Of a stretch of DNA of 64,000 bases, positions 7,148 through 38,522 are shown piece after piece. Under the pieces are notes generated by a model, which saw only the letters and a program-made list of their open reading frames with translations, was not told where the DNA came from and did not search any database. Origin of the DNA: a virus; the IMG/VR virus record IMGVR_UViG_3300032288_003949, positions 1 to 64,000 of that record. One strand, written 5' to 3'. Numbering within the stretch: the first letter of the stretch is position 1; each line of letters begins with the position of its first letter. The translations under genes were made by a program, and so were the position numbers.

Positions 7148-7306
7148 TCATGCCGACCTTCCGCCTGTGACCACACCGAGAATTACTCCGGCGACCAATC
7201 CGATGGCGCTCGCTACGATGTCAATGGTGTTCGGAGCCGCGACGATCACAATCGCGACGGCGGTCAAGATGAGCAGCAAGCCCGCTTTCCCTTCAATGGT
7301 CTGCAT
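7148..7306 (-). CDS. 52-aa membrane protein with two TM helices (not in ORF track)
   Basis: MQTIEGKAGLLLILTAVAIVIVAAPNTIDIVASAIGLVAGVILGVVTGGRSA; TAATG overlap with the giant gene stop, abuts the next start. Confidence 0.7.
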   Translation of the reverse strand: MQTIEGKAGLLLILTAVAIVIVAAPNTIDIVASAIGLVAGVILGVVTGGRSA

Positions 7307-10300
7307 TACTGACCTTGCTTTGCCCTGAGTCGGTCGATGAGTTCTTGCCTTGACAGTTCGGTGTTCGGCGAAACGCCAAGTGCGTAGATGAGTTCGGAGG
7401 TGCTCATCTGATCGTAGGCCCCTTCATCCGCCTTGGCCATCGCCTCTTCTTCGGCTGCGCTCATTTCAGGCTGAACCTGTCCCATGCCGTCAAGCGGGCC
7501 GCCCATTGGAGATGCCATGGATTCGCTGTCACCTCTGAAGGCTGGGTTATTCTCCAGCTCAACACCGATCTCGCGGTATGCAGCATCAAGGTTCTGCCTT
7601 GCCCGAGTGATATTCTCTACGGGTGCGGCGTTGCTCACTTCGTAGTCACGGAGTTCGTCCCAAGCTGCACGGAGGTTGGCCTTAATCGCTGTCTTGGATG
7701 CCTCTGACCACCTAGGGTTGTCATCAAGGGCCTTGGAAGTCTCGTCCATTCTTGCCTTAATTGCATCTGCGTTAATGAACTGGCCGTCGTTCTCTAGTGC
7801 CGTGTCAAGGGTAAGCGCTGCTGTGTAGAGCGGGATGCGGTAGCTGTCACCGGCGAAGGTTTCGATTCCACCCGCCGTAAAGATGGATGCGGGATCGACG
7901 CTCTTGTTGAATCCGCTGTATCCGCCGTCGTACACTGGACCTTCGCCGTCGCCGATCTCTCCGGCGGGTGATGCCATCGGCTCCGCGCCTGTTGCCTTGA
8001 GCACTGCGGCAACGGTCTGCGGCGACTCGTTTTCGACATCGATGTCCACGCCCTTCTGTGCCAAGTCTCCGAGTGCAGCGATTACCTGAGCGCCATCCCA
8101 ACCGCCGCCAAGCTCCGATGCCACATTTGCGGCAGACTGTTCGAATGCCACTTCACCTGCTGCAATGGCAGCATCTTCTGGGGACATTCCTTCATCCACG
8201 GCAGGCACGGGCGCAGGTTCAGGCGTAGTCTCCGGCGTAGGTGCATCTTCGGTTCCGATGTTGCCCTTAATCGCGTCGTAGATGCCCTTTTCGCTCTCTG
8301 GCAGGTCAGCTACTGGTGGAGCTACTGGTGCGGCTCCAGGCTGGTATTGCGGCATGTCGACTTCTGGCAGGTTTATGCCACGCGACTCGGCTACTTCGGT
8401 GATCTTGGCCCATGCATCTGGGTCGGCTGCTGCGAAGGTCTGTCCTTCGTAGTTTGTGTCCGTCATCTGGTTAATCAGACCGAGCAGCTTGTCGTTGTTC
8501 ATCGCCTTAATGTTGCGGATGTTGCCCTTCGGAGACCTGGCGGGACTCGCGGTAGTGCCGTCCTGCGCCCAGTTTGCCACGGCCTTCTTGTTGGGCTTAG
8601 CGACCTTCTCCTTTGGAGTCGGCGCGGCTGGTGCTGCGGCTGGTGCTTCTGGTGCTGCGGCTGGTGCCTGTGATGGCAGATACTTCGGGTCAGACTCTGG
8701 CAGCGCGGAGCGTCGACCGTATTCCTGATTGACACGCTCCCATCCGTCTGGATCGATGGTGGCAAAGTCCTGCATTTCTTCGTAGAGCGGCAGGAACTTC
8801 TCGTTCTTCATCGCCTTGACATTCCGGATGTTGCCCTTGGCGGAGCGGATGGGCGAGCCAGCAGCGTAGGCGTCAAGGCCTAGCTTCACGCCTTCGACGG
8901 CCTGCTGGGTTGCGTCGTTGGGCTCTACACCAGCTGCTTCAAGCTCGGCTGCCTTCTCGTCGGTGTTCGGGACGAAGGTCGCGTCGACTTCTTCAGCGTA
9001 GTCGGGGTGCATGCCGCCAGTGCTGCGCGGAGCAAATCTCCAGTGAAGTATTCGCTTTGTTGGGCTGTGCGGCTTGCCAACCTCGGCATCGGGGTGCGGA
9101 TCGTCCTGAATAATATTTCCATCCGCATCAACAGGTTTAGCGATGTACCACTTGCCTTCTTTGTTGGTCGCTCGGTGAAGAACATAGGTGTAGCCGCCTA
9201 CATCGGCAAACAGCGTTCCGGCTGGCATCTGGTGCATCTCAACGGCATCGAGGTTGTCGGAGTAGTTGGCGGGGAGATCGACTGTCGACGCTGCGACCGG
9301 CGATGCCATGCCCTGCTCGTATCCGGCGAGTTCGTCGGGCCGGACTGCGGTCAGGTCGGCGAGCGAGAAGACATCCTTGTCATTGACAAAGCCCGCGAAG
9401 ACTTCTTCTGTGTAGTTAGTGCCAAGGAACTCTGGATCCTGTGAAGCGAGCGAGTCCAGCGCGTCTGCTACTTGGACGGTCACTGCGGCTGCGCGGTCAG
9501 GCGAAAGGCTCTCGGCTGCTACGGGGCCTTCGGAGTAGCCGTGCGCGATGGTCGGTTGACCTTCACCCGACTTAATCACGGTTCCGTGCGGCATGTAGAC
9601 ATTCCGACCCTCTGCAACCTGCTTCACTCGCGCCTTGTGTTCGATGGCAGCAGGCGACTTCATGCCGACTGGCACTGGCTGGTTGACTCTTACGCCGTCA
9701 AGCTGTCCATTCTCTACGCGCTTCAGGTCTTCTGCTGTAAGCGGACGAATCGTGTTCTTCGTCGTATGAACGGTCGGAATGCTTCGATGCAGGTAGCTGC
9801 GTGGAAGCTCGGTGTATGTGGTGCCGTTGGACAGCAGGATTTCTTGCGATGGGAAGGCCCGCTCTGGCATGTTGGGCGAGTCGACAGGCGTAATATCTTC
9901 AAGTGCAGCGCCCTCGTTCCCAGGTTGCATCGTGGCAGGATCCGCCGGTCGTGCGCGGTCGCGCTCGGCTGCGATGACATAGTCGAACGGGCTTTCCATG
10001 CCCTTCGGCTTCCATTCTTCCACCGTGAAGGTGCCGCCCGCTTCAGCGTCGCCTGCCTGTCCGTAGCCAATGGAGCGCCAGACAGGATTTGCCGCTGGAT
10101 CGTTGTCGCCTCCAAAGTCAATGTCAACATCGCCGTAGGTGTCGCCAGTAGCCGAAGGGGTGAGATTGCCCAAGGCCGCCTGTAGAGCATCAAAGCGAGC
10201 CAAGTCGCTAGTCCAACCTTCGTCTATGTTTTCTATCTCTACATCGATTTTGAAGGCTTTTCCGCCCGCCGTAATAATCATAGGCGTGTCGTCAAATTCG

Positions 10301-13300
10301 TCTTGGGGGCCGTCAAGAAGTTGAATCCCTAGACTCTCTGCCACATCGCTGTCGGCGTTCAACACCTGCCCTTGGATATCCTTCGTTGAGACAGGCAGGA
10401 TCGCGGGCGATGCCATGCCCGTGCCTGTTACTGCCCAATGCGGCAGGTCCTGTTCGCCCGTCGGGGTATCGACTACAACGCGCTTACTGGTCGCGGGCTG
10501 CTCGTATCCGATGACATCTTGGCGAAGGTCGCCCCCGCTGGTATCTGGGTCAACTGGTTGGTCGTAGTAGCGTTTAATCGTGCCTGTGGACCCATCGGGA
10601 AGCAGCACCGTTGAGCCAATTGGCCGCTCTGGTGTCGCGGGCGATGCCATGCCCCGAGCTTCTCCCTGCGACTGCAGCAGGTCTTCTCTGACTTCGATGA
10701 TCTGACCAGTTCCGGTGAGCTGGATGTCGTAGTAGTCGATGGGCCGTGAGCCGTCCATCTCGCGGCGGCTGCTGAGCACGATGCCGTCGTTCCCGCTCCA
10801 CGAGACTGCTTCGCCTTCTGCGTAGACCTTCGCCATGGAGATAGGCGACTGCATTCCGTCACCGCTCAGGACGCTTGCCGCCCGTTCAAGCAGGTCTGCC
10901 GCAGTCTCGCTCCGAGCGGTGTCAAGGACAACTCCCCTTTGCAGCTTCTGTCCAATGTCAAGAGCTTCGTTAGGGTTATCAGGGTCAATCTGTTCAAGCA
11001 TGTTGAGAATGACGGTTCCTACCACTTCCCGTCCGTTGCGATCAAGGTTGCCCTGCCGCAGTGCCTGTGCGTATGGGATCTGATTGGGCGACTGCATCGC
11101 ATTGGGAGAAGCCATGCCTGCGGGCTCTGCACCCTGCTCGGTGACCAGTTGGTAAAGGGCGTTGCCTACTACTTCGCTCTTTTCCAGATACTTGTCGTCC
11201 ATCTCTGGCAGGTCTTGGCGACGCTGTATTTCCTGAACGATGGCGGTTACGCCGTCTTGGTCAATCTGCTGTGCGTTGGCCTGTTGCATGGCTACTGCTA
11301 CCAGCTTCTCATTGTTCATGGCACCGAGATTCCGGACTCGGCCTGAGCCAGAGCGGATCGGTGAGACGCCTACTAGATCCTGTCTCTGCGCCCATGCTGG
11401 TGACTGCATGCCGCTGAGTCCCTGCGAGACGGCCTTGTTTCGCTTGCCTGCGGTGCGCCTAAGTGCTCGGTCTGAAATCGGCTTAAATGCAATCTGTTTT
11501 GCTTCAAAGTAAAGCTTGGCGGCGAGCTGTCGATCCTTGGCATTGAGCTGCTCTTGGTTCTTAAGTGCTCTTGCAATTCGCAGGATCTCGTTCTCGTCGC
11601 CCGTGAGTCCTTCCTTGCGGCGCACATTGTCGATCAGTATTCCTGAGCTCTTGTTTGCCAAGCCGCCGAAGCCCTTGGCATATTCGTCGGCATCTCGCTT
11701 GATGATTGCCGCTTTTGTGCGGCCACCGCCTGCGGGCGATGCCATTCCGGTCGGAATATCACCCGCAAGGACTTCATCTATTGCAGCCGTCATCTCGGAA
11801 ACGAGGCGTTGCACCTTTTCTTCGGTGATATCTGGATCTGTCTTCAGCGCCTCAAGATCGGAAAGGATGCCAAGGAATCGTTCTCCCCCTGTCTGGGAGA
11901 CCATCAGGACATTCTTGAGCGGGATAATTTCCGCATCAAGTTCGTCCTTGGCCTGCGCCACGCTTTCAGCTGACGGCTCTAGGCTATTGAGGGTGTTGCG
12001 GGCTCGGTATATGCCCTGAAGGGACTTGTATTCGCGTGGCGGAGCGCCCCATCCTGCGGGCGATGCCATGCCGCCGCTAATGCTCTGGAATTGAACTGAG
12101 CCACCAAAGTCTCCCTTTAGTGCCTTCTCTGCTTCGGTTTGAACCTGCATCGGCTCGTCCCTGAGCGCGATGTTGGAGAAGGCCACGACATACCCTTCAT
12201 CGTCCCTAACTTCTGCGCCGCCGTCGGGATATACGCTGACATAGCCTCCGTCAATTTTCTTCGTCGCGGAGTAGTTACTGCCAGGGGTGTCACGACCGAT
12301 ATCCCATCCGGTTCCGGCCCAAACCTCCAGAGCCCGACCAGCTTCTGGGCTATCCCCGCCAAACTTCTCCGCCATGGCCTCAACCTTTGTCGGGCCGCCT
12401 GCGGGCGATTCCATCATCGGCTCGTCGTCGTAGAGATCGTCCTCTTCGTAGAGATCGTAGTCGTCGTCTTCGTCGGTTTCGATGGTGATGTTGCCGATGC
12501 GGACCTGCCCTGAGTCGTCGTCGAATTCGACGGAGAAGGAGTTATCGAAGGTGACTCGCTGCATGCCACGCGGTGTGGGCTGGCCCTCTCCGGCTGGGAC
12601 CACACCGAGTAGTCCTGCGTCGACCGAGTAGCTCTTGCCGTCTGAGCCTGTGTAGGTGCCATCTCCGTATGCGGTGCCGCTCGCGGTGAACGCTGGGCCT
12701 TGCATGATCTTTGCGCCGTAGTTCAGCTCGTCGAAGCCTTCTGATGAGTCAAGCGCTTCTGTCCATGCGTCGCCATCGAAGGCGTAAGCTGGATCACCGA
12801 CGAAGTAGTCTCCTGCTGGCAGAAGGTCGGATGTCCGGCGCTCAACGATTCGCCGTTGCTCAGGCGTGAGATCGGCGGGCGATGCCATACCTCCCCTCCA
12901 GTTCCGGTCGAACCAGTCATCGACTTGTCGCGGCGAAATCACGCCTTGAGCCTCTGCGTATTCCAGGGCTGCTGCGACAACATGGTTCCACCATTGGTCG
13001 TTGACCATTGCTTCGGCTTGTTGCTCAAAGCTACCTGGGAAGTCGCCGCCATCATCCAGGCCGTAGCCTTCTACAACCGCATCGTCATACAGGATGTTCA
13101 GCACCTCATCCGTACTGCCGAACTCCGGAAGCTCGTCGATCTTCTTCATGACGAAGTCGGCTGTGGAAGAATCGAGCCCGATCATATCGAAGGCTGCTGC
13201 AAACGGGCTTCCCTCAGCTCCGACCGACCGCAACATTTCAGCTGCTTTTTCGGGATTGCGGCCTCGCTTGCCCCATCCATCGTTCAAGACGCTTACAGCG

Positions 13301-16300
13301 GGCGATGCCATGCCACCCTTTAGAGCGTTGTTATCGACTGCCCACTTGTAGACGCGCTCGCCGACTTCTGTATCAGTCGCTGCGCTGTCTGGGTAGCGGG
13401 CTTTAATGTCCTCAAGTAGCGGATCGATCTCATCTTCGCTGATTCCACCCTGCTTTTCAGCAGCTTGTCGGAGCGCTGCTCCAAGATACTTATTGGCTTC
13501 ATCCGCGTCCTTCCCTAGGAGCGCAAAGTCGTCCGAGTCATACGGCACTGGCTGTGCAGGGGTAGGAGTAGCCTTCATCGCTGCGGCTGATGCCGCTGCC
13601 TTTGCGCGACGAGCTTCTTCTTCGTCGCTTGGAAGTATCGCTGTTTTCTCGTAATCTACGAGATCGAGTTTGCCCGTGCCAAGTGCATAGTCATATGCCT
13701 GATCTCGCACCACCGTGTCGCTGGACTCGCTGAACGGTAGGGCCTCCAGGCCAGTCTCTAGCTCATCAGATGTAGTGTTGGGCGGCAGGTCGTCGATGAA
13801 TTTCTTGACCGCCATGTCGCCCTCGGCTGAGAACATGCCGAACTGTCCTCGGAACTCATCACCCTCGCCGCCGTAGATTCCCTCGGTAGCCTTTGCCAGC
13901 TCAGCCGTATAGTTATCGACATTGTCGGTGGGGATTGCAACTCGTGATTTCCAGGTTTCCTGTGCGTCTGCAATTCGCTCGCCGTAGGCGTAGCGGCGGA
14001 GCTCATCAGTTCCAGCAGCCTCATCGATGGCAGATCGTGTCGCGTCGTCGAGCCCATCGTACTTGGCTTTCAACTGGGCGCGGTTCTGCTGGTTGAAGCC
14101 GTATACGGGCGATGCCATGCCGGATGCTGCGAATCTCTCTTGGCGCTTAACCGCATCGTCCATCTGCCGCTCGCGGAGACCCTGATCTCCACCCACACCT
14201 GGAGTTTCGAACTTGAGCTCGTCGACCTGACTGTCAAACTCGGCCTGCGAGAGCCTTCCGGCTTGGCGATCCAATATCAGCGAGAAGACTTGTTCTTCGA
14301 AGTCTGCGAGCGCCTGTGCTTCCTTCTCAGCTACGATTCGATCTTCTTCATCAAAGGAGCTTGGGCCTACTGGCGATGCCATGTTGGATGGATCCTGCTG
14401 ATACCAGAAGTCAGCCAGGGTGTCTTTTGCAAATGCGCGCAGGTCATCGACCGGCGTATCCTTGACCAGAACACCATCGGAGAACTCGTCGTTCGGCTCT
14501 AGGCCATCAAACCGCTGAAGCCAGTCTCGGAGCTTTGCTTCATCAGCGGTGTCTATGCCCTTGTTACCACCAATGGCCTTCCATGCTCGCTCGTAGGTGC
14601 TTCCAGGCTCCACGCCTGTAGGTGACGCAGGCGATGCCATACCGGTAGGGCCCTCTGGATCATCGGGGTCTGCGACATCAAGGGTCATGAAGATTTCTTT
14701 TCGCAAGTCTGGAATCGCGCCCTCATAGTTTGCGTCCATCGCATTGGGATCGAGCGCATCCAGAATCTTGACCATTTCGTCAGGCGTATAGGAGGTGGTG
14801 TTGCGCTTCAAGCTTGGATCCCTTGGCTTCCAGCGTGGGCTCGGAGATCGAGTGGTTCCGAGTGCGTCGAATCCTGGCACTGCATCGCGCAAGATTTCAA
14901 GGTCAGCGTCGGTCCAGGTCCATGAGTTGTTGCGGCTCAGAGAGTCTGCGATTGCGGCCTTGACGGATTCTGCAGATTCATAGTCGCTGGGCGATGCCAT
15001 GCCGCTCTGCATACCGAAGCCGCGATACAGGTCCTGAAGCTCCGCGACAGCGTTCCGTCGCTGCTCAGGTGTCATGTCTTTCGTGACATCGCCAATTTTT
15101 TCGCGTAGCGCGAAGGCATCAGCAGGGGGGAGCTTCGCTAGTGCTGCGTTAGCCGCATCCATGTCGCCGTATTGAATGCCCCGCGCAGCTTCCTTGGCAT
15201 TGTTCTGAGCCGCGTCGATGGCAGCCTGTGCATCGGATTGCGTAGCGCCCTTGTCTACGAGTCTCTTGACAGCATCTGAGTAAGGGGAATCGCCTGCTGG
15301 CGATGCCATGCCCTCGGCCTGTGCCTCCAGGCGGGCCACAAGCTGATCGCGTAGGCGCTCCTCGGCATCGTCACGATACTTCTGTTTTTCAGCGTCCGAC
15401 AGCTTGTCGTAGTCCTTGCCGTCGTCATAGGCCAAGTCGTATGCGTCGTCCTCAACCTCTTTCGCGTATCGCTCGTCATTCATCTTCTCAAGTTCGTCGG
15501 GACTCGGATTCATGAATTGCGAAGCGTCTGGTTCATCAGCGACTCGCATCGCATCGATTTCTTGCTGCGTGTTCGGCGATGCCATGCCCTTTTCGTCGGT
15601 GTAGAGTTCGTATTCCGCGCCGATGCGGTCGGCCATTGCCTTCATTGTTCTCGCTGCGAATTCGTTGTTGTTAACTCCAAAGATGAGAGCGTCTTCCACA
15701 GGCTTTGCTACGCCCTTCACGCCCCGAAGCTCTAGGCCCGTGACCTTGCCGTCTTCGACGGTAATTGAACCCTCTGGTGTGTAATCTGCGCCGAGATACT
15801 TGACCTTCAGGTCATCTGGAAGTTCTGTGACGGCAGCGGGCGATGCCATGCCGGAAGCCTTCTTGTAGGCATCTGGCATCGCATCGATTTGTTCCTGCGT
15901 CATCTGCCTGCCGGTTGAGAACCGCTTGGAGAATTCATCGCGAGACATGCTCTTGGAGACGGTCGGCTCAAACGGACCAGCGGTCTGGGCTGGAGCGGTT
16001 CTACTTCCAGGCCGCAGATCGGCATCGTCCTGTCTGTCCTTGCCATCAGTCCACTGGGTGTTCGGCGATGCCATACCGATGCCGCGCTCAAACTCGCTGG
16101 ACTTGGATCCTGGAGCCTCCATGTCGCGCTCATCCTGCTCCATCTTGGCGAGCTTGGCCGCGTCGGAAGCGGTTCCCTGTGCGCCTCTGTTGAGCGTCAG
16201 CTTCCGCCCGTTAGCCAGCCTAATGCTCTTGCCGTCAGGTTCAATCTTCCCGCGTGTGCCTGCAAGGTCGACGCTATCTCCAGGCCGCAGCACCCGCCCG

Positions 16301-18666: not shown

Positions 18667-18712
18667 TGTGCGAATGCTAAAGGTTGTGGCTCAGGGTTCC
18701 CGAAAATGACTT

Positions 18713-19160: not shown

Positions 19161-19175
19161 GGCTCGGAGTGTGAA

Positions 19176-23511: not shown

Positions 23512-23515
23512 AATG

Positions 23516-27700: not shown

Positions 27701-30052
27701 TGGCGGGATAACGATTGGCAGGTCTGCGCCCTTGTCGATGTGTTCGCGCAGTCGTTCTAGCCATGCGCCAGCGCGGGGCTGCTTACTCTCCACCTGCAAG
27801 AACTTTCGTGCCTTTATGCTGAGCTCTGGGAACCGAAAGACCATCGACCGCTTGGGATCGACCTTTACCTGCGGAACGATGGCGATCTCCCTTTCCGACC
27901 CGAACATCCCAAGCCAGTTATTGACCGTCGTTGCCAGAACGATGTGGCGAATTGACAGGGCTGTCGCCACGATGGTGTTTCCGAAGCCGAGAGAAGCATC
28001 GATGTTGAACGACTGGCTAAGGCCGGAGAAGAGCCATCGATCCTTGAACAGCTTTTTCCACCACGCCACATTGTCGTTCGATCCGTGGAAGACCGTCAAG
28101 CTCGGCGAGCGGGTGCGGTTGTAAAGATCCCATGCGTAGAGATCTCGGAGCCGTCCTTGGAGATCCATGCCTTTAGAGCGTTGCTCAAGTGCGCTCTTGC
28201 CACTCTCCCCCGTGCCGGAGAAGCTCGCAAGGGAAAGGGTTCCACCCGATGAGCCCCCGTATTGGCTGTTGTGGGCTTGCTTAACCATGTTGACGATCTC
28301 GCTGTCGAAGTCAGCTTCGATTTCCTTGACCATCTGCTTTATCGGCGCTCCACTCTTCCACTTCCCGAAGCGCTGCATCACATCGATGTAGTGCATCTGC
28401 TCAATGAGCCCGAACTGTTCCCATTGGTCTTCGCTTAGATTGGAGTCCTTGGGCAGCGCCAGCGTGGGATCGTGGGTGCTGGATTCGACATAGGGCTCCA
28501 CCATGCGGACATTGCTCGTTTCGTGCATGGTCTGCTTCCCGCCTGCGACGAGCTTCTTGGGCTTTGCGGGTTTCACGCCGCCAAGTTCGGTCGGTTTGCC
28601 AGGGGTGTCTTTCGGGTCGATTACTCGGACTTCGACCTTCTTCTTGTCGCCGCTTGCTTCGTCCAGCACGACTTTGCCCTGCAGGATGTGAGCTACTTCC
28701 CATTCCTGTCCATCAAGTGTGAGCAGGTCGCCGACCCTTACTTTCTGCCCCGCTTTGCCCGTCATGGTGCTGGGGTAGATCGGGTGCTCTGCGTCTTCGG
28801 TAGCTGTCCAGCCGCCAGCAGGCGACGCCATTCCGGATGGCATGTCCTCCAGCTCAATCGTGCCAATCTGTTGCTCTAACTTATCGATGAATAGAGGCAG
28901 GATCGATTCGATGCCTTCGTTATGTGTAACTGGGATATTGAAGCTCATGAGCTTTCCCCAGTCCCGCCATCTGCTTACGGGATTTTGAAAGTAGTCACGA
29001 ATTTCTTCAGCCGTTGCTTTCAGTGTTATCGATTTAGCGGCTGGACTTGTCTGGAGGAACTCGCGCTCCTTGGCAATCAGTTTCAGAAGCGATTGCCTTA
29101 GACCCTCCGGACCGTCGTAACCCTCCGCTTCTATGTACTGCATAAGAACTGGAAACTTTTGGGCTTCCGTAAAATCTAGGCTCTCCACGAGCTTCATCGT
29201 GGCTGTCGCGGTAGCGGCTTCATCAACATAGAGCTCCAGTTCAAGATCGCGCCGCTCTAGTGTGCCGGTAGCCACCTGAGAGTCTTTATGAAACCAGACT
29301 TCCTCCTCGTTTTGCCGATCTGTTTGCGTAATTAGCGTTAGGGGCTTTCCATAGCCATCTGAGTCCACTCCAATTTCAACAAAGCTCAGGGCGACTATGG
29401 GGCTCTCGCTCCAGCTACGAATCGTTTCTGCGTCTGGTGGCGGCGTTCCGACGGGTTGCCCGCGAAACAAAGTCGGGCTGGGTGCTTTTTGCCGCTGAAG
29501 TTCGAAGTAGAGAGCGGCGGCTGTGCTGTGGGGGTCAAGGCTAGGGTCTATGGCCTCGCCCGCCCTTGCCGTTCCAAAGAAGAAGTGTTCTCCCTCATCC
29601 GCAAGCACCCAGTGCGCCAAGCCAGCTATGACACGAGCTTCATGTAGCTCGTCGGGCGTATAGGCTTTTGCCGCTGGTGATGCCATTGCCTTTTGCATTT
29701 CTTGGCGTATGGTCGTCCGTCTAGAGTTGCGACGGGCGGCATCTTCCTTCGTCATGGCGGGGGTTGCCACACTTCTGGGTAGGCCGCTGGGTGAAGCCAT
29801 AGGCCCAAGCGGAGCTGGGGATGCCATGCCGCGTGGTCTGTCTGGGGTTTCGATGAACCTGCCGCGTCGGTTGCGCGGGTGCAGCATGGGATCGAAGTCG
29901 GCGGTGAACAGGCTCCTGATCACCCGTCCAGCGCGGTTCAGAACGCGACCTTCTTGCAGGTCTATTTCTTCTTGCTCAGTAGCGAGCAGACCAGTAGGGT
30001 CATCTGGTCGCAGGTCTTCCGGCGGCGTAGTGGGTTCTAGACGGATCGGCAC
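24707..30052 (-). CDS. 1781-aa modular protein with ADP-ribosyltransferase-like domains and MASP linkers
   Basis: HPRNRRGRF; four MASP; LFRG..SWSES..A..F; VFHG..SQSF..A..FG..SEREI; repeated small beta modules. Confidence 0.8.
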   Translation of the reverse strand: MPIRLEPTTPPEDLRPDDPTGLLATEQEEIDLQEGRVLNRAGRVIRSLFTADFDPMLHPRNRRGRFIETPDRPRGMASPAPLGPMASPSGLPRSVATPAMTKEDAARRNSRRTTIRQEMQKAMASPAAKAYTPDELHEARVIAGLAHWVLADEGEHFFFGTARAGEAIDPSLDPHSTAAALYFELQRQKAPSPTLFRGQPVGTPPPDAETIRSWSESPIVALSFVEIGVDSDGYGKPLTLITQTDRQNEEEVWFHKDSQVATGTLERRDLELELYVDEAATATATMKLVESLDFTEAQKFPVLMQYIEAEGYDGPEGLRQSLLKLIAKEREFLQTSPAAKSITLKATAEEIRDYFQNPVSRWRDWGKLMSFNIPVTHNEGIESILPLFIDKLEQQIGTIELEDMPSGMASPAGGWTATEDAEHPIYPSTMTGKAGQKVRVGDLLTLDGQEWEVAHILQGKVVLDEASGDKKKVEVRVIDPKDTPGKPTELGGVKPAKPKKLVAGGKQTMHETSNVRMVEPYVESSTHDPTLALPKDSNLSEDQWEQFGLIEQMHYIDVMQRFGKWKSGAPIKQMVKEIEADFDSEIVNMVKQAHNSQYGGSSGGTLSLASFSGTGESGKSALEQRSKGMDLQGRLRDLYAWDLYNRTRSPSLTVFHGSNDNVAWWKKLFKDRWLFSGLSQSFNIDASLGFGNTIVATALSIRHIVLATTVNNWLGMFGSEREIAIVPQVKVDPKRSMVFRFPELSIKARKFLQVESKQPRAGAWLERLREHIDKGADLPIVIPPEIIMSQKSLKPPPPAALEAFADYKDIPEIKGEPYTPEQLKAKHGDLPFKHVDEKGRPEPRVAAEAGVKAGDFMIGMKGTLYWIGPDKTNNFGLRYHKIVKGSDGKLMFDGDSYAFEGDGANTYYFLKGNVKPLKDETDWDPAAWQFAAEDPILIRNMQVGDKFKVDGTPYELSQVPASMSISDDRLTVRDLETGIQGTINADFATTRLVPATGYVAGQTLQPAKGMTLAYQGKKHTITSVKKDGIVSVKPAGGTVVQLAPDDPALKDLFDPSAWLPSGETTLQNLSIGEMFHGGSGKTVRPYKVIGKDGNKIEWQNMDNGKKGSSPKTKKVAVLKPQGGTPGEADHKSGAPVNTEPPPPSDMPVTKAETAGKLISQEVAEQVGDVLLKVPAAELKEGTVIQHKRASDGMVVLYQVKTVDPDEAIIEQVSVEDYTGSGPVGKGSVSPENAMVVDEFKLTKNETLGDLLTGKTVDNAFQELAEQDKVFFYDTKLAATAWKQPEAVTTQVPTLTNEEAKAAAGIMANAPAKNLKVGVVFYDDSAKQFYKVQENNEGQVRILVSEAPEAAPITEITLGETEKLFGANPPPTGLIIYDLLDENEVAQEKVTVADEISDLPQAEIEPYKSAYGSGGKYKHDKIGEMTVGTIFQDKTGKLWSVQVSGANAVITDGVSNYAVNGDLRGKRLNEGLIQDAPVDAFALLNPPPAPEPVPHPYQEQKEVVPETPTSMIMDSMTPNQGMTVTDIADKTNLESNAYYIYKGELFMIGDADYEGELRRYLVEPDGEMVPFDTSFSTWHSWETVPDSVFVENEVLEEPTASETEPSGGELLKNVVDSTQTGYAEVEFEAGGKTFSVIAIGQKNNTGQQIYLKDMTTGETKNIPLTDDLTLDGVAREFSEPPPTATSEAVTTPGLGPNFTAEEVAAAPKIELNFYKSAYGSGGKYKHEKVGDLPDGADFTVKGDKSKWVKVKSMTGGWVLVWKLHGSASELGLVKANGRVRAV

Positions 30053-30542: not shown

Positions 30543-33500
30543 CTAGCGCGGGACGGAGACGGCTTGGAGTATGACCGCTCCGTTTTCCTGCAGCACAGCT
30601 TGTATCTGGAGTTTCGTGTTTCGCCCCATCAGCAGAGCACCATCTGGCGCGTCCAAGCCTTCGGCTGCAGGCATCACCACGCTGGATCCAGCTGGTATCT
30701 GGACCTTGACCGCCACAACTCCTGGAGTCGGGGCGAAGTCGGTTTGCAGCGGCAGGTAGGACTTATCGGCCATCCACTCGCCTTCCAAGTCTTCGGGATT
30801 CTCTAGCGGTTCTGGCAGGACTGCCCATGCCGTCATGTCTTCGTCGGTCTTCGACATGGGACTACGGAAAAGCTCGTCTAGCGTTGCGATGGTGTCAGCT
30901 ATTTCTTCTGTTGCTTCTTCTTTCGGGGCTCCTGAGCGGAGATGATCGTCGATTGCCGTTCGGTCGTCTCCTAGGTAGGCTTCCATAGCAAGGTCTTCTT
31001 CCGGTAGTGATGGGAACTCACGCTGTTCGAAGTAGTCGGTGATCTCGTCGCCCTGCAGCGGTTCTGGTATGCCTTCTTCGCCACGCGAGAAGCGCTCTAG
31101 CCATGCCACACGCTCTTTCAGGCTGGTGCGGATCCGCTCGCGCATCGCTTCGTCCTTGAATGGCGCTGCGTCCACGAGTTCGTCAATTCGTTCTGGCGTA
31201 AGGCGTAGTGCCGCGTCTTTTGCTCCGGCTTGCATGCCAGCTTCGGTGATTTCCATGCGGCCATTGGCCTGACCGCGCCCGCTTTGCATCGTCCAGAGCT
31301 CTGTCGGGACCGATCCGAAGCTCTTGCGCTCGCCTTGGGCGCGGAACTCCAGGGTTCCGCCTTGGTCTAGGCGGACAGGCTGGTCGCCGTTCCACAGGAT
31401 GTTGTCTTGTGTCAGACCGATGACATCCCAGTTAGCCAGCAGCGCATCTGCCACGAATCCTTCTGCCAGATCTGCGTTGGGTTCGCTCCAGCGCCTTTGT
31501 TCACCGTCTACCAGCGGGTAGGTGACGGCGATCTGGTCGCCATATGTCGGATGGCGGCTGATTCCTACTCCTGCGTTAGAGACTGTGACTCCCAGATCCC
31601 TATAGATGGCGTTTGCCAACAGTTCGGTTGCTACGCGGTCTGAGTCGCCGCGATATGCCTTGACGAGCCACTTGTTGCCGTCAGGATCCTCTGCGATCCG
31701 TGCGTCGTTGGATCCACCTGCGCCCTTTATGTCCTGAAGTTCGACATCCGTGTATTCGGGTATGCCTTCGACTGGCTCTGGTGGAGCTTCCAGCATTGAG
31801 CGACCTAGGTCGTCTTCTTTGCCCTTGTTGCCCTTGAGCAGGTTGAAGATGTTAGGCGAAGCCATAGGCGAAGCCATCTCTACTGGCGAAGCCATGCTGC
31901 CAGTTCCGAGCAGCCTTTGTGCTCGTTGCACCATTTCATCGACCCGCTGATTCCAGACTTCGCGGGAGGGGCTATCTACTGGGATGATGTTTTTGAGTTC
32001 GTCATGGAAATCTGTATCTGTCGCGATGCGAGTTACCGCTTCTCGTTGACTATCGCTGAGGGTGGCAGGAAGCGACTGCACAAGGGTCGCTCCCGTTCCG
32101 TCTGTGTAACCAAGCTCGCGCTCGCGGATTTTTTCGTATCTTTCGCCTGAACCAAAGCTTAGATCGTGATCGATGGCGTAGAAAACGGTATTGGGAATAG
32201 TTTCGTACTGTTTGTGCACGAGCAGGTTACCCATGTGCCGATCTGTATTGCCAATGATGTCGTCAAGAATAGCGAGATTTTGGAACGCTGGCGAGTTCCG
32301 TGTTTCGTCTTCTTGCAAGTCAAGCACTCCGCTGCCCGCCACGGTTGGCAGTCTTTCCCCGTTTACCTTCAGTTCTTGTTGGATTAGTTCTGGGATCCGC
32401 ACTTGGTCAAGCGATATTTCCCGCTCTTGCTGCCCCTCCAGGCTTCTGAAGGTGGCAAGGTTGTTGTCCCAGTCAATTTCCTGTAGGTAGCCGCGCTCGC
32501 CACCCACATCTACCACCACATTGCGAGTTCTTGGGTTCGTCGGGTTATCTGCCAACCGCTGCTGATTGCCTTCATCTACCTTCTTTAGTGCCGCAAGTGA
32601 CTCTTCGTTGCCGACGAGACGGGTTGCGACACTTGCCACTGGCACTCCAAGGATATCTGCGACCTTTTCGGCGGCTAGGTTGGGGGCTTCATCATGGCCG
32701 TCAACTGTAATTTTCGCGTTAGGTGATCCCCAGTCGCGGTTGTTGTAGAAGGGTCTAACCAAGACATCCGTGTCACCAACTTTCGCTGCTGTGACGGAAG
32801 CGACATCGTAAAAACTTCCCGACTGATATTGCACGGCGATGTCGACGACTCGGTCGGTCAGTTCTTGCTCTGAAATGTTCATCTTTGGCGTTTGGTTCGG
32901 TGACTTCATGCTTTCGACCGCTTGCTTAAACTTCGTGCGCTCTCGCCGGTAGACCGGCGAAGCCATCGCCTGCTCAAACCTTGCCTTATCAGCTGCTAGG
33001 ACATCGTCCATCACGCCTGCTTCTTCTTGGATCTTTCGAATCATGCGGTCGCGATAGCCAGGTTTTCCGCGTTCCTCGGCGGACACTTCGATGACGATGC
33101 GCTGCTCATCGATTGAGTCGGGGCTAAGGATGATTTCTTTTTCCATCAAAGCAATGCTGCGGGTGGTGGGGTTCATCGGTGACTTCTCTTTGTCCATCGC
33201 TTCCACGCGCTTGGCCACATCTATCCCCTTGCCGTTCTGTGTCACATAGACCGTGACCGTAGCGGATCCGTCTGAGTAACCGTGCGTTCCAAAGTGCAGC
33301 CCTTGACCTGGATCTGCCGACCATCCGCGATATCCAGACTCACTTGGCGCTGGCAAGAAGCGGCTCTGGCCCCTGAAAAGAACCTGTCCATCAAAGCTCT
33401 CTCCGTTATTTTCGATCTCCCATGCGAGCGCATCAAGTGCGTCCTGATACTCCGGCTTGGCCTTGGCGCTGCCTACCCAAGCCTGAATACCCGTGTCGAC

Positions 33501-36500
33501 CAGCTCATCGTGTTTCTGCGCGGGTTGGTAGGTGGCGGGCGACCGCATCGCGTCGCCGAGTTCTGCCCTTGCCCGCTCGGTCTGAAGTTCCCGATCTGTC
33601 GGTCTTCCGATGCCCGTTGGTAGTTCGCCGGTTCTCCATCCCCACCTTGGGCTGGTGCGCCGCAGGGTTTCGGCCACGCGGGGGTATCGTTCTACGAGAA
33701 GCTCTGGGAGAAGCACATGAACAGCGAAGTCGACGCGCCTGCTCAGGCCGCAGGGAGAGACTCCGCGCCCGCCGACAACCAGTCTGCTGATCGGGGCGTG
33801 TTCAGCGTCGTCGGCGTGGCTTGTGAGCTTATCCATGTCGATGTCATAGGGGTCTATGCCAATTCCGTTGAGTGCGCCTCTCAGGAAGTTTTCTACCGGC
33901 CCTTGTCCGTCCTTGAGCGCGTCCAGCGACATGCCGCTTGCCACTTCACTCAGCATGGCTTCGTCGCTTCGCAGCCTTGGGCCAACGGGCGATGCCATCG
34001 CACCCTCTGGGCTCTCGTAGAAGTTCTGCAGCGGCTGTGCTGCTACCGCCTGTGCCATGCTCTTGCCGAAGCCGCGATTCGCTTTTTCGACCAGCTCCAT
34101 CCGTTTGTCAAGGGCGTTCTGACGCATCTTCTTGGCAGCAGCGATCAGTTCTTGTGGCCAGCCGAGTTTCCCAGCGGCTTCGTCGATGTCCGGCAGGTCT
34201 TTTTCCAGTGTCCCGCTGAAGGCGCTTCCGAAGGTCGTTTCATCGAAGCGGTATGCCATGTGCTGCCCTAGCTGGGCGAAAAGGTCACCTTCATAGGCCC
34301 GCTTTGGTTCGATGACGGCTGGGCTGGCCATGCCTGTTGCTACCAGCGCCGTTTCAGTGTCTTTCGTGTCCGGCTTGCCGAAGTAGTCGTCCATTGACTC
34401 CGAGAGCACATCGATGGCGCGTTGAAGCGCCTCTCGCATGTTCAGGGTTTCGTCTCCTGCTGGACCTTCGCCAGCCTTAGCGCGTATTTCCTGCAGCTTG
34501 GACAGGGTCTGCTCCATGTCTTCACGACTCGCGTTCTTAATGGCTTTGAGGGGCCCGACGCCGCCGCCGTAATAGTTGTTCCAGGCATGGGATGCGAACC
34601 CGTCAAATTCCGTGTTGTTGGGATCGTCCTGTTGTAACACCGCTGCGATGACTGCAGTGGGCCTCATGAGTCCTTCGGAGTCGTAAAGGGTGTCTTCGTC
34701 TGGATCTGCTGGCACGAAATCTTGGTCAAGCGATGATGCCAGCGTGTCTTGTTCCAGGGTCAGCTGTTCGTCCGACACCTTTTGCTCAGGCTTGTAGCCG
34801 CCGTCTTCTAGGGCTTCTCGGACCTTTGCTCGCAGCCATGTCTCTGCGTTGTCTTCATACTTAACTCCGTCCTTGGTCGGGATCGGACCTTCATCGCCTG
34901 TAGCCAGCAAGATGTCGATGCGCCGATATCCTTCTAGCGAGCCGCCGTCCATAATGAACTCGGCTTCATCCTCGTATTCGTTGACGACTGGATCTGCAAG
35001 CGAGTAGTCTCCCGTTGCCGATGCCCGCGCTTCCATCTCGGTGCGTATCCAGCGACGCTCAGCGGTATTGTAAGCGCCATCTAGATCAGCGTTAGTGTCG
35101 TGGAGTATTTCTTCGACTGCTCCCATCCCATCGGCTTGGAACATTTGCACGAGAGCATCCGCGATCTCCTTGGCGCGGCTGGAGCCAGACTGAGCAGACA
35201 ATATCCAATCCTCTCGTTCTGGGCCCTCTGGCGGGACTTCGATACCGAGTCGTTCCGCCAAGTAAACAATCTCAAAGTCATCAAGATCCGGAAGAGAAAC
35301 ATCGTATCCCTTGGGCGAGGTGATGAATTCCCGAATGATTTCTGCCTGATTTTCATTCCCTATCTTGGATCGCATTTCTTCGTAGCCAGCTTCCCTCGCC
35401 ATCTCTGCCTGTTCAAGCAGATCCTTTATCTCAACGCCCTTGCCGCCCGTGATCTCGTAGAGGCTGATTATCGCCTTGTCTCCAGGGTCCAGGCCGTCCA
35501 CCGCTCCAGCCACGCTAGTTTTTCTTATTCCCGTGCCATCGCGTTTTCTTACTTCGGGGCCGCTGCGGGCAAACTCAAGGGCTGTTTCAAGGCGCTCGCT
35601 CCAGCCACGGATTCGGTTGCCCTTGGGTTCATCGTGCTGGACGGCTTGGCCTCGCCAAAGCAGCCCTTCTTCTGTCTTGTAGGTATCGATCTTCCCGTTA
35701 TTGACTTCCCAGAGCAGGGCATTGACTTCTTCTTCGCTTGAGTTCTTAAGCGCCATGTCTGGGTTTTCCTGCCATCTCTGGACTATCGCTGCCGCCCGTC
35801 GAAGGTGCTCTGGGTCATCTCTGCTCCCTTCGTAGGATGCAGGCGATGCCATTGCCTTGAATTCGTCCAAGGCTGCGTCCGAGGCGAGCTGCCTTGCCAA
35901 GCTCTTTCGATCCTTTGGATCGCCGTCCATTGGGCTTGCCATGCTGCGCGGCCCAACGCGCTGTTCTATGCCTGCGCTTTCAGCATTAGCCAGCCTGTTC
36001 GGTGTGGCATACCGCTTACGAGTTCCATCTGGGCGCTCAATCAGGGCGCTGCCCTTGTCGCCCCTGAACACGACGGATCCGTCGGCGAGTTCCAGCTCAT
36101 TTCCAGGCTGCAGGGCTTGAACCTTCCGGATCAGGGCTCGCTTGGGGTCTGAGTAGCGCCTTGGGTCGTATCCGAGCGGCCCAGATACCTTTTTCGGCGT
36201 AACGCGGTCTTCGCCGCCTAGGATTTTCTCAGTTGTTGTCTTTGGGGCCTTGCGGCTGCGGGTATCGGCCTTTGCCCGCCTGATGTCTGTTACCGCAGAG
36301 TCCTGCCAGCGCTTGACTTGGCCCGTTTGCATGCGAACATCGGCGCTGAAGCCGTTATTGTCGACCGCCACGACCTTTTCCAGAGTGCCGACTTGGATGT
36401 CGCCGTTCTTGGCCTTTATCCGCACCTTGTCGCCTTCGCGGAGCCTGCCGGTGACCTTCTTGCCCCGCAGCGTCTTCTTTCGGGCGCTTCCGACCTTCTT

Positions 36501-38522
36501 AACATCTGCCATGTTCGGGTATCGGATGCTGCGGTCTACGACATTTCCGTTCGCGTCCTTTATCGGCGCTTCGACTGCGATCTGGACTTCTCCCGCTTCG
36601 TCATAGCCCACATCGATGACCTTGCCTGAGAAGGGTTCGGTTCTGCCCCCGACTCTGACTGCATCGCCCTTGCTCCATTCCATCTCTGGAAGCTCAATCT
36701 CAGGTGTGATCACCGCAGCGCCAGGACCACCTGGGTTTACCATGAAGTCAGTTTCCATTTCCCCCTTTGGGCCGCTGCCAAGCTGCTGCAGCATGCCGCG
36801 CACAATGTCTTGGGCTCTCGTTTGGCTTATGCCTTCGGCTTTGGCGACATATTTCGCAAGCTCAGCGATTCGATCTTCAGTTTTCGTGTAGGACATTGAG
36901 AGCCTTTCAAGCAGCTCTTTCCGATCCTCCACAGGCACTTGACCTGTTTCCAGCACTCGCAGGAGTGCGGCTCTCTGCGGCCTGTATGTGCCTTGAATCC
37001 ACTGATCGTCTGGGTTCGCGGCTACATGCCGCAGCAGGTCATAGTCGCCGTCAAGGGCTGCCTGCTCAATCGTGACCATGTGCGCGATTTCTTCTGTGAG
37101 CGCCTCTTCTAGTGCGAACGCAGTCCTATTAGTGGGATCGTTGTATTCCGCCATGCTGATTGAGCTCACAGCGTGGGTCATTTCGTGGTTAATCGTTCGC
37201 AGCGCGTTGTAGTAGTCCGACAGTTCGTTCGGTGTCGGTTCCTGTCCGGCTGCCCGCAGGTCACGCACTCGTTCGATGCTGGCTTGCTCCCATTCCCCGA
37301 TGAAGATGAGCGACGCGCCGTCTTCGCCTAGGTGTTCGCCACCAACACTTGGCAGGTTTGGTTTCTTCTTGTCCCTTTTCTTCGTTCCCCACACGACTGG
37401 CGTAATTTCGCCGCCATACTGCTTCGCAAGCTCAGTCAGTCTGCTTTGAGCGCGTTCCACGGCGGCTGGTGCGCCCCCGTATTGTGCGGCGGCTGTTGCC
37501 ATCTTCGCGAGCGGCCCCTTTCCAGCAGGACTTTTCATCCCATCCTCTAGGTCGGGTGCTGTGATCGTTCTCTGGTTGCCGCGTCCCACCACATTCGGTG
37601 CGTCTGCACCCATGAGCCGTCGCAGGATCTCGGCGAGGCTGACGCGGGGGGCGAAGCCACCACGCTTAGGCATGAACCTTCCGCCCCAAATCGTTCCCTT
37701 CGGGTAGCGTCGGTTCCATTGGAGTTCCATAAGATCTGTCTCGTCGTAGACCTTGGCTTCTGTCAGGTTGTATCTCGCTCGGATCTCTTGAGCACGGGCT
37801 TCGGCATCGGTTGTGTCTGGCAGGGCGGCACCCATGTATCCCATACCGATGGCTTCGTCCCTCGTGAGCAGGTCACATCTGCATCCCGTATGCACGGGCG
37901 GATGTGTCACATCCAGAACGCTCCACGGCCACCATCCGACGGCTGCCATCGCTACGCAGTCCGGCGTGTGCTCCTTGACATTCGGGCTCATGATCCAGTA
38001 GGCCCCATCTGGGCTGAGTTCGCGGACCAGTTCCCTGCGGAGCGTGGCTTGGACGCGGGCAGCCACAGCGTCGTCGTGCTGTGCCATGTATCGTTCTTCA
38101 CGGTCGAAGACTGCATCTACGGCAGCGAGCGGTAGTGGCTTCTGCAGGGCTTCGGGGATGTCGCGCAGGAGTCGCTCGCGCATCTTGTCGATGAAGGCCG
38201 CTTCCCTATCGGCTTCTTTCGCTGCTTCTTCAGCAATCCGCTGATCTGTGACTTCTTCTTCGGTGAACTCTGGTCTTACCACCTGTTCGATCCATCCCGT
38301 GCCGCGCCGGAATGCGACAACGGCAGCCATCAGCGCAGCTATGAGCGATGCGGTTCTGGCCGACTCAGCGCCCGCTTGCGCCAACTGAGCTTCGCCGGTT
38401 GTCTGACCCTTGTCCTTGCGGTTTGCCAGATTTCCGGCGGCTGCTGCCGCGAGTATGGCTTCTGTGTCGTCCTTGGCGCGGTCAATGGCCTTGCGGCTTC
38501 TCTTACTTGCGGACGATGGCAT
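30543..38522 (-). CDS. MuF (SPP1 gp7-like) minor head protein fused to zincin, ART-like, two kinase-like and degenerate VIP2-like domains
   Basis: HTPDC..HPPVHTGCRC (MuF); NHEMTH..LEEALTE; WRGQ/FRGQ..GWS..ExE; GNTDRHMGN..AIDH; GGSN..WLVK..NWDVIG..DN..RLDQGG; 11 M-x-S-P; downstream of portal. Confidence 0.88.
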   Translation of the reverse strand: MPSSASKRSRKAIDRAKDDTEAILAAAAAGNLANRKDKGQTTGEAQLAQAGAESARTASLIAALMAAVVAFRRGTGWIEQVVRPEFTEEEVTDQRIAEEAAKEADREAAFIDKMRERLLRDIPEALQKPLPLAAVDAVFDREERYMAQHDDAVAARVQATLRRELVRELSPDGAYWIMSPNVKEHTPDCVAMAAVGWWPWSVLDVTHPPVHTGCRCDLLTRDEAIGMGYMGAALPDTTDAEARAQEIRARYNLTEAKVYDETDLMELQWNRRYPKGTIWGGRFMPKRGGFAPRVSLAEILRRLMGADAPNVVGRGNQRTITAPDLEDGMKSPAGKGPLAKMATAAAQYGGAPAAVERAQSRLTELAKQYGGEITPVVWGTKKRDKKKPNLPSVGGEHLGEDGASLIFIGEWEQASIERVRDLRAAGQEPTPNELSDYYNALRTINHEMTHAVSSISMAEYNDPTNRTAFALEEALTEEIAHMVTIEQAALDGDYDLLRHVAANPDDQWIQGTYRPQRAALLRVLETGQVPVEDRKELLERLSMSYTKTEDRIAELAKYVAKAEGISQTRAQDIVRGMLQQLGSGPKGEMETDFMVNPGGPGAAVITPEIELPEMEWSKGDAVRVGGRTEPFSGKVIDVGYDEAGEVQIAVEAPIKDANGNVVDRSIRYPNMADVKKVGSARKKTLRGKKVTGRLREGDKVRIKAKNGDIQVGTLEKVVAVDNNGFSADVRMQTGQVKRWQDSAVTDIRRAKADTRSRKAPKTTTEKILGGEDRVTPKKVSGPLGYDPRRYSDPKRALIRKVQALQPGNELELADGSVVFRGDKGSALIERPDGTRKRYATPNRLANAESAGIEQRVGPRSMASPMDGDPKDRKSLARQLASDAALDEFKAMASPASYEGSRDDPEHLRRAAAIVQRWQENPDMALKNSSEEEVNALLWEVNNGKIDTYKTEEGLLWRGQAVQHDEPKGNRIRGWSERLETALEFARSGPEVRKRDGTGIRKTSVAGAVDGLDPGDKAIISLYEITGGKGVEIKDLLEQAEMAREAGYEEMRSKIGNENQAEIIREFITSPKGYDVSLPDLDDFEIVYLAERLGIEVPPEGPEREDWILSAQSGSSRAKEIADALVQMFQADGMGAVEEILHDTNADLDGAYNTAERRWIRTEMEARASATGDYSLADPVVNEYEDEAEFIMDGGSLEGYRRIDILLATGDEGPIPTKDGVKYEDNAETWLRAKVREALEDGGYKPEQKVSDEQLTLEQDTLASSLDQDFVPADPDEDTLYDSEGLMRPTAVIAAVLQQDDPNNTEFDGFASHAWNNYYGGGVGPLKAIKNASREDMEQTLSKLQEIRAKAGEGPAGDETLNMREALQRAIDVLSESMDDYFGKPDTKDTETALVATGMASPAVIEPKRAYEGDLFAQLGQHMAYRFDETTFGSAFSGTLEKDLPDIDEAAGKLGWPQELIAAAKKMRQNALDKRMELVEKANRGFGKSMAQAVAAQPLQNFYESPEGAMASPVGPRLRSDEAMLSEVASGMSLDALKDGQGPVENFLRGALNGIGIDPYDIDMDKLTSHADDAEHAPISRLVVGGRGVSPCGLSRRVDFAVHVLLPELLVERYPRVAETLRRTSPRWGWRTGELPTGIGRPTDRELQTERARAELGDAMRSPATYQPAQKHDELVDTGIQAWVGSAKAKPEYQDALDALAWEIENNGESFDGQVLFRGQSRFLPAPSESGYRGWSADPGQGLHFGTHGYSDGSATVTVYVTQNGKGIDVAKRVEAMDKEKSPMNPTTRSIALMEKEIILSPDSIDEQRIVIEVSAEERGKPGYRDRMIRKIQEEAGVMDDVLAADKARFEQAMASPVYRRERTKFKQAVESMKSPNQTPKMNISEQELTDRVVDIAVQYQSGSFYDVASVTAAKVGDTDVLVRPFYNNRDWGSPNAKITVDGHDEAPNLAAEKVADILGVPVASVATRLVGNEESLAALKKVDEGNQQRLADNPTNPRTRNVVVDVGGERGYLQEIDWDNNLATFRSLEGQQEREISLDQVRIPELIQQELKVNGERLPTVAGSGVLDLQEDETRNSPAFQNLAILDDIIGNTDRHMGNLLVHKQYETIPNTVFYAIDHDLSFGSGERYEKIRERELGYTDGTGATLVQSLPATLSDSQREAVTRIATDTDFHDELKNIIPVDSPSREVWNQRVDEMVQRAQRLLGTGSMASPVEMASPMASPNIFNLLKGNKGKEDDLGRSMLEAPPEPVEGIPEYTDVELQDIKGAGGSNDARIAEDPDGNKWLVKAYRGDSDRVATELLANAIYRDLGVTVSNAGVGISRHPTYGDQIAVTYPLVDGEQRRWSEPNADLAEGFVADALLANWDVIGLTQDNILWNGDQPVRLDQGGTLEFRAQGERKSFGSVPTELWTMQSGRGQANGRMEITEAGMQAGAKDAALRLTPERIDELVDAAPFKDEAMRERIRTSLKERVAWLERFSRGEEGIPEPLQGDEITDYFEQREFPSLPEEDLAMEAYLGDDRTAIDDHLRSGAPKEEATEEIADTIATLDELFRSPMSKTDEDMTAWAVLPEPLENPEDLEGEWMADKSYLPLQTDFAPTPGVVAVKVQIPAGSSVVMPAAEGLDAPDGALLMGRNTKLQIQAVLQENGAVILQAVSVPR

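Follow-up and report, generated by a model that had tools for sequence, protein, structure and literature searches.

The first 64,000 bp of the IMG/VR contig IMGVR_UViG_3300032288_003949 (80,925 bp, about 68% complete by estimate, from an uncultured phage), hereafter the window, encode three giant proteins, A, B and C, in which a short peptide word, (G)M-x-S-P, recurs 39 times at the joints between mostly unrelated modules. In related phages we found the word at orthologous joints but spelled differently, with one spelling per phage. The peptide is the conserved unit across genes and lineages, and gene A carries an added homogenisation of its linker DNA. We favour the explanation, to which we would give an even chance, that the word is a protease site at which capsid-loaded polyproteins would be split into separate proteins.

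According to this proposal, A, B and C would be polyvalent cargo or ejection proteins of the phage, each a chain of independently folding modules, and G-M-x-S-P (cross-lineage core [M/Q]-x-[S/T]-P) would be a recognition word lying in exposed coil at the module joints. A trans-acting protein that co-evolves with the word would read it, most likely a phage-encoded endopeptidase, and the best candidate for this reader is a conserved HExxH domain of predicted gluzincin fold just after the first word of C. Cutting by this enzyme, either inside the capsid or after ejection, would release about 34 separate proteins. In gene A only, a second layer may be present, in which the homogenised linker DNA would reflect gain and loss of cassettes or gene conversion at the joints.

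Number and placement of the junction word

M-x-S-P occurs 24 times in A, 4 times in B and 11 times in C. These computed counts match exactly those made by hand in an earlier reading of the bare sequence (the original prediction). Composition alone predicts 0.38, 0.18 and 0.20 occurrences, respectively, and the maximum in 2000 shuffles was 3. M.SP is enriched 55- to 63-fold and MASP over 250-fold, and in an unbiased scan of all 4-mers with one wildcard MASP came out on top for A, B and C alike (255- to 372-fold). Among all open reading frames (ORFs) of at least 80 amino acids (aa) on the whole contig, only two others carry M.SP, once each: the large terminase subunit TerL (AAIMGSPYLR) and a plus-strand ORF at 47404-48237. 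The major capsid protein (MCP), the portal protein and a 401-aa ORF adjoining the MCP gene do not contain the word. The enrichment and near-confinement to the giants suspected earlier are thus borne out, and so is the absence from portal and MCP, but the claimed absence from TerL is not, although its single match is at chance level. M.TP does not occur in A, B or C. A preceding Gly, described as usual, is the rule in A (19/24) but not in B (2/4) or C (2/11). Two words stand in tandem in C (MASPVEMASPMASP, residues 2210-2223), and conservation stops at G-M-A-S-P-(A/N/V) in protein and DNA alike.

The 39 sites divide the three proteins into 42 pieces; without the 8 very short ones (4-38 aa), about 34 modules of at least 68 aa remain, where the earlier figure was about 40 small units. 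In A, about 22 modules of 68-444 aa, mostly orphans, are marked off by the words; the 864 aa ahead of the first word comprise a lysozyme-like region, small modules and two PG_binding_1 domains. B has all four words within its first 411 aa, followed by an unbroken body of 1374 aa that is conserved in a 111-kb relative. C consists of a conserved core (residues 1-1057), variable middle modules and a conserved last module.

Several lines of evidence place the word at module boundaries, as had been proposed. Inter-word segments are mostly unrelated to each other, and in the paralogous segments B03, C03 and C06 similarity begins at segment residue 1. Of 158 BLAST homology blocks across 13 family proteins, 54 begin no more than 15 aa from a word, against 15.5 expected (maximum 28 in 2000 randomisations), and 28 of 157 end that close, against 15.3 expected; since the high-scoring segment pairs are not independent, these figures are supportive and give no formal probability. 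Module A10, between the words at residues 1927 and 2085, corresponds to a widespread family of proteins of about 120-170 aa that stand alone: an exhaustive phmmer search with A 885-2084 gave 1508 matches, of which the best 150 all fell on A 1940-2083 and were mostly whole proteins of 120-170 aa. The GNAT, ADP-ribosyltransferase (ART) and Zeta-toxin Pfam domains of the relatives each lie within a single module; for example, the ART domain of the relative P0167 (1310-1473) falls within its module 1303-1497. A search for homologues of A 865-3130 among proteins of near length returned only A itself, and a word-limited search with A 865-1926 at shorter lengths returned none, so that A01-A09 have no relatives detectable by such a search.

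Structure prediction points the same way. In an AlphaFold model of C 300-1000 (10-sequence alignment, mean predicted local distance difference test (pLDDT) score 70), the words at 329, 861 and 891 lie in coil with pLDDT below 50 and separate confidently folded domains, in line with the boundary role foreseen in the original prediction. A single-sequence model of A 1786-2750 (mean pLDDT 38) has all nine internal words in predicted coil, which is weak evidence because Gly and Pro are biased toward coil.

Respelling in related phages and codon use

Relatives were identified by a TerL search, which gave G001, and by a protein search with the C core (residues 1-1060), which gave nine further giants; related-locus searches with the portal and with B as queries returned none. 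Cluster members of A, B and C are all near-identical and therefore hold no evolutionary information. Among cultured phages, megablast with C gave no match, and tblastn matched the ART-like part only, with Actinomycetia phage DSL-LC01 as the best hit; the 3289-aa giant of DSL-LC01 has no enriched word.

G001 is a 35-kb contig with a TerL 77% identical to that of the window and a C homologue in a 2858-aa open frame. This homologue has no M.SP; its top word is MATP (8 copies), and M.TP occurs nine times, mostly as MATPT. In a pairwise alignment with C, GMKSP at residue 329 is matched by MSTP, and MASP at 891 and at 2220 by MATP. The top word of the C-core relatives is (G)MASP in five, with the most copies of GMASP (13) in P0167, MATP in two, and (G)QASP, with no M.SP, in two. 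One of these Q-lineage proteins comes from G002 (IMGVR_UViG_3300015371_000006; 111,596 bp, 89% complete), which is collinear with our phage at 40-70% protein identity. Its C homologue contains 7 GQxSP and its A-like giant (2561 aa) 12 GQxSP(G), with a single M.SP in both together, and GMASP at A 3120 aligns to GQASP. Between the two phages core genes are 55-70% identical, and the middle modules of A have no detectable similarity to their counterpart. Eight relatives share the last module of C at 53-60% identity. In seven of them it is preceded by the word, as MASP, MATP, MKSP, QASP or MNSP, in an otherwise unalignable stretch; in the exception, P0166 of the Q lineage, the word is about 20 residues further upstream.

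By maximum likelihood, the core tree groups P0167 (M) with P0166 (Q) and P0168 (Q) in one clade, and the T lineage is nested among S lineages in the other. The tree therefore calls for at least two, more likely at least three, concerted respellings, each at all joints. Further away, an open frame at 6698-20452 of the contig L154 (IMGVR_UViG_3300047409_000574, 126 kb), at least 4585 aa long, encodes a zincin of this family as well as another HExxH at residue 4236, and GEKG[DG] occurs in it nine times at a spacing of 150-470 aa. Another distant zincin-bearing family member uses APQSPG. The linkers that the original prediction proposed to look for in related phages thus stand at orthologous joints, uniform within each phage and respelled between phages (GMASP, MATPT, GQxSPG, GEKG[DG], APQSPG). 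Such respelling, with one word per virus, is a signature of viral polyprotein sites that co-evolve with their own protease.

These data bear on two other explanations. The word could be a passive flexible linker without a specific reader, similar from joint to joint through descent or through codon or composition bias; it does contain Gly and Pro, and it lies in coil. Drift would be expected of such a linker, yet one exact word is found at 39 joints of unrelated modules with unconserved flanks, composition predicts fewer than one occurrence, and the changes from M to Q or from S to T affected entire lineages, at every joint in two different genes, all of which makes a passive linker very improbable. 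The ATG of the word could alternatively be an internal translation start producing nested shorter proteins, since the Met never varies in this phage and MASP looks like a native protein start. We give this next to no weight: there is no Shine-Dalgarno-like or other conserved sequence upstream of the words, and internal starts are excluded for the family by the two Q lineages, where every joint has Gln (CAG/CAA) instead of Met.

In G002 we also noticed a 1389-aa ORF outside the head block (17002-21171, minus strand) with one GQASPG word (AAGQASPGAG); judged from the sequence, the junction word may thus also occur in a tail-region protein of this phage.

We then considered whether selection acts on the peptide or on the DNA. 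Within gene A the linker DNA is near-uniform (GGC ATG GCA TCG CCC): GGCATGGCATCGCC is present in ten exact copies, and three codons are far above background, GCA in 17/18 words (background 0.35, p=3e-7), TCG in 19/24 (0.14, p=8e-13) and CCC in 13/24 (0.20, p=2e-4). Elsewhere codons are freer. The Ser codons of the words in gene C are TCG (7), AGC (2), AGT (1) and TCA (1), and its Ala and Pro codons also differ from word to word; the nine M.TP words of G001 use three Ala, four Thr and three Pro codons with no bias beyond background; codon bias is mild in G002, where the middle codon varies; and Gly codons differ among the words of L154. Because synonymous codons vary in G001 and L154 and both Ser codon families are used in C, selection acts on the peptide, as first suggested. 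The observation on which that suggestion rested, that codons vary, applies across genes and lineages but not within gene A. Codons that are free in most lineages in turn suggest that a trans-acting factor reads the peptide.

It is nevertheless conceivable, although improbable in our view, that the linker of about 15 nt is an in-frame recombination site for module cassettes and the peptide its by-product. Such a DNA joint would account for the exact copies and skewed codons of gene A, for the dissimilar middle modules of A and its G002 counterpart, for homology blocks that break at words and for tandem 'empty' words (MASPVEMASPMASP, MASPNAMQSP and GQHSPGQASP). It sits poorly with the codon variation in G001, C and L154, with the varying middle codon of G002, which leaves no long identical DNA there, with the end of DNA conservation at the word itself, and with the 17 copies of ATGGCATCGCC, which are all in frame and all on the coding strand. 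An exact scan of IMG/VR with GGCATGGCATCGCC gave single scattered matches only, and therefore no other phage bears an array of this DNA word. Given the freely varying codons of the other lineages, we regard the homogenisation as an extra layer specific to A and not as the cause of the word. It suggests recent gain or loss of cassettes, or gene conversion, at the joints.

The candidate protease and the case for cleavage

A, B and C together contain a single HExxH motif, HEMTH at C 446-450 (37173-37187), where three zincins had been announced. It belongs to a domain (residues ~344-609) with a downstream EEALTEEIAH; HExxH and EEALTEE.AH are kept in eight of nine other family members checked. The AlphaFold model of C 348-582 resembles gluzincin catalytic domains, with tricorn F3 first (Z 10.3, root-mean-square deviation 3.5, 188 residues aligned), followed by LTA4 hydrolase (Z 9.2), aminopeptidases N/A (8-9) and thermolysin (6.6). 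Foldseek against the PDB had matched only Tudor/KOW-like barrels, which come after the zincin domain in the model; the zincin fold emerged only with VIA-align wide. Pfam metallopeptidase (MPTase) models and polyvalent-protein models do not match these giants, and the family profile matched PDB sequences only of Zeta toxin and ART. The domain directly follows the first word of C (residue 329), a position that fits a self-releasing enzyme.

Conventional alternatives did not turn up. No match to S78, ClpP or S49 prohead proteases was found in the contig or in the 89%-complete G002, which leaves the zincin as the only candidate in hand; in the S77 search the control was silent. With these results, and with the word absent from MCP, portal and the 401-aa ORF, the prohead protease as the cutter, one of the enzymes originally proposed, is left unsupported. 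The assignment of C to the MuF proteins is likewise unsupported: Phage_Mu_F (PF04233) has no match at E<=1 in G000, G001 or G002, nor does hmmscan of C find one, and the likeness is one of gene position, one gene after the portal gene.

In a reading without cleavage, the word could be a short linear motif for binding or modification that is never cut, through proline-directed Ser/Thr phosphorylation, O-glycosylation or use as a docking tag, the last meaning that a capsid-interior, scaffold or chaperone protein reads it repeatedly to load or organise the giant chains. The core of a hydroxyl residue followed by Pro is invariant, with S and T interchanging between lineages, C and its relatives have kinase-like modules, and concerted respelling fits any co-evolving reader, protease or other. 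We consider such a motif unlikely but worth serious attention. The GEKG[DG] of distant lineages has no Ser/Thr-Pro, modification gives no reason for the exact placement at boundaries, and many unrelated enzymes per chain together with an on-board peptidase favour a release of parts. The kinase-like module C08 is missing from most word-bearing relatives. A kinase module that tracks the S/T switch was considered and rejected on this distribution of C08, with no informative difference in the last module.

Other observations weigh against cleavage by the zincin at the words. The kept hydroxyl residue before Pro would suit a modification site equally well, and the homogenisation of gene A means that something beyond peptide selection acts there. 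P0169 has the zincin but no enriched word, and P0167, despite having the most GMASP words, reads HEAVGH at its N-terminal site (a second motif, HEAAH, is at 2464). In a distant lineage the zincin is of the same family, yet the word there, GEKG[DG], is unrelated. The contig is incomplete, and a conventional protease could lie outside it. In the AlphaFold model of C, two other interdomain coils inside module C01 have no word, so that one 'module' may hold several domains, and by TOP-IDP, hydropathy and Gly/Pro fraction the 10 aa on either side of the words are no more disorder-like than the rest.

Cleavage at the word, its attribution to a particular enzyme, head packaging and delivery into the host are what we infer from these sequences, and the link from zincin to word is a loose one. 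If the zincin does cut, our guess is that the scissile bond is G|M, with Met, or Gln in the Q lineages, entering the S1' pocket. An S1' residue of this type is typical of thermolysin-type zincins.

The best precedent is the class of polyvalent proteins, which were defined, and for which autoproteolytic processing by zincins was proposed, by Iyer, Burroughs, Anand, de Souza and Aravind (2017; PMC5512222). These too are giants encoded next to the portal, with a metallopeptidase and ART, kinase-like, GNAT, Zeta-toxin and peptidoglycan modules. A and C likewise combine lysozyme-like, PG_binding, phrog_20074, zincin, kinase-like and ART-like parts, and the metallopeptidase hub of the class has its probable equivalent in the conserved HEMTH plus EEALTEEIAH of C, whose modelled domain reaches Z 8-10.3 to gluzincins. 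The difference is that no junction peptide is described there and 'linker' is absent from the text (PMC5512222), whereas a fixed pentapeptide is shared here by three proteins. From their sequences, we classify A, B and C as polyvalent phage proteins, in a variant with a lineage-respelled junction word. A further member of the class, gp47 of phi24B (2811 aa, with a MuF-C metallopeptidase), was detected in virions by mass spectrometry and proposed to be an ejection protein (bioRxiv 10.64898/2026.04.10.717836), which supports capsid packaging for polyvalent proteins. It is alike in being a giant with a metallopeptidase, but no junction word or modular processing is reported for it, and its sequence shows no detectable relationship to any of A, B and C.

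Cleavage of capsid-internal proteins at a short phage-specific motif, sometimes at several sites, is known from the prohead proteases T4 gp21 (L/I-x-E) and phiKZ gp175 and SPN3US gp245 (S/A/G-x-E; PMC5694885, PMC7411985), and the cuts proposed here would resemble it. The proteases of those phages, of assemblin fold, also cut capsid and scaffold proteins, whereas here the word is missing from MCP and portal, the only recognisable peptidase is a zincin inside a cargo protein, and one chain has 24 sites, far more than theirs. In its logic, a protease within the polyprotein set and one word per virus that differs between relatives, the arrangement is also like the polyproteins of picornaviruses and potyviruses. 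Their 3C and NIa enzymes are chymotrypsin-like cysteine/serine proteases of RNA viruses with proven cleavage; ours would be a zincin of a double-stranded DNA tailed phage with putative cleavage. Literature searches with GMASP and related terms gave nothing relevant.

Processing of polyvalent proteins was thus proposed earlier, and no cleavage code has been described so far. The junction word predicts the start and end of each cargo protein, giving about 34 candidate injected proteins, mostly orphans, for functional screening, and GMASP, MATPT, GQxSPG and GEKGD could be naturally orthogonal protease/site pairs of use as tools. If correct, the proposal would explain how tens of early effectors pass a narrow portal and tail, and how the arsenal turns over quickly. 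A wider generalisation, which we put forward tentatively and think somewhat likelier to be wrong than right, is that a family of actinophage-like tailed phages loads its capsids with junction-coded polyproteins from which an on-board zincin, cutting at the pentapeptide of its lineage, frees about 34 small proteins. Most of these would have no detectable relative and are possibly pre-made anti-defence or takeover factors; every lineage would have its own orthogonal enzyme/word pair, and cassettes would be exchanged rapidly and in frame at the same joints.

Feature coordinates and neighbouring genes

Nearly all genes of the window are on the minus strand. Their order is TerL, portal, a 313-aa ORF, C, B, small ORFs, DUF932, NUDIX and A in the first part, and, after A, an Ig-like protein, DNA ligase, the 401-aa ORF and MCP, which places A, B and C within the portal-to-capsid block. 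The coordinates are collected in Table 1.

Table 1. Positions in the window of the giant genes, their junction words and selected domains and landmarks.
Feature	Position	Strand	Remarks
Giant ORF A	7306-18666	-	3786 aa
Giant ORF B	24707-30052	-	1781 aa
Giant ORF C	30543-38522	-	2659 aa; one gene downstream of portal gene
Word array of A as a whole	7507-16074	-	24 words; first at residue 865, last at 3717
A words 1-6, M-x-S-P codons	16063-16074, 15838-15849, 15574-15585, 15298-15309, 14989-15000, 14629-14640	-	
A words 7-12, M-x-S-P codons	14371-14382, 14107-14118, 13300-13311, 12877-12888, 12403-12414, 12058-12069	-	
A words 13-18, M-x-S-P codons	11734-11745, 11398-11409, 11104-11115, 11086-11097, 10843-10854, 10639-10650	-	
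A words 19-24, M-x-S-P codons	10405-10416, 9988-9999, 9652-9663, 9298-9309, 7966-7977, 7507-7518	-	
B words, MASP codons	29816-29827, 29789-29800, 29675-29686, 28820-28831	-	
C words 1-6, M-x-S-P codons	37527-37538, 35931-35942, 35841-35852, 34320-34331, 33987-33998, 33537-33548	-	
C words 7-11, M-x-S-P codons	32955-32966, 32898-32909, 31884-31895, 31866-31877, 31854-31865	-	
Predicted gluzincin-fold metallopeptidase domain of C, residues ~344-609	36696-37493	-	HEMTH + downstream EEALTEEIAH
Last module of C, residues 2220-2659	30546-31865	-	kinase-like half + ADP-ribosyltransferase-like half
Module A10, A residues 1927-2084	12415-12888	-	bracketed by GMASP and M-MESP; phrog_20074
Cell-wall-directed N-terminal part of A, residues ~44-520	17107-18537	-	endolysin-like PHROG matches + two PG_binding_1
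TerL	52651-54375	-	lambda gpA type
Portal gene	40982-43027	-	start of head block holding C, B, A
MCP gene	451-1512	-	end of head block; no linker word

Within the giants themselves, we noticed a second word, [LM]-x-E-[AS], which occurs 11 times in A residues 1-864, against 1.3 expected (maximum 7 in 5000 shuffles), and 3 times in the remaining 2922 aa, against 3.9 expected. The N-terminal part of A (16430-18666, residues 1-750) seems, from its sequence, to be punctuated by this different, T4 gp21-like word. The phrog_20074 family of A10 comprises 271 cluster representatives at E<=1e-10 and is a functional orphan; among its members is one fusion with a ChlI/Lon-like domain. A basic HPR..GR[FW] motif appears as HPRNRRGRF in B (residues 58-70, window 29850-29900) and as HPRGRGGRW at A residue 406, and a GGRF.PRRGGF-like stretch is present in the C-family consensus at C residues ~290-310. 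In B and C the motif stands a short way before the first linker word, and the B homologue of G002 has it too.

Interleaved with the giant genes are an ATP-dependent DNA ligase (3697-4686), a NUDIX hydrolase (19176-19814) and a DUF932 protein (20241-21329), odd content for a head module, which is retained in the collinear relative G002. The 401-aa ORF (1910-3115), just upstream of the MCP region, gave no PHROG, Pfam or useful PDB match; it is 63% identical in G002 and may encode a scaffold or an unrecognised protease.

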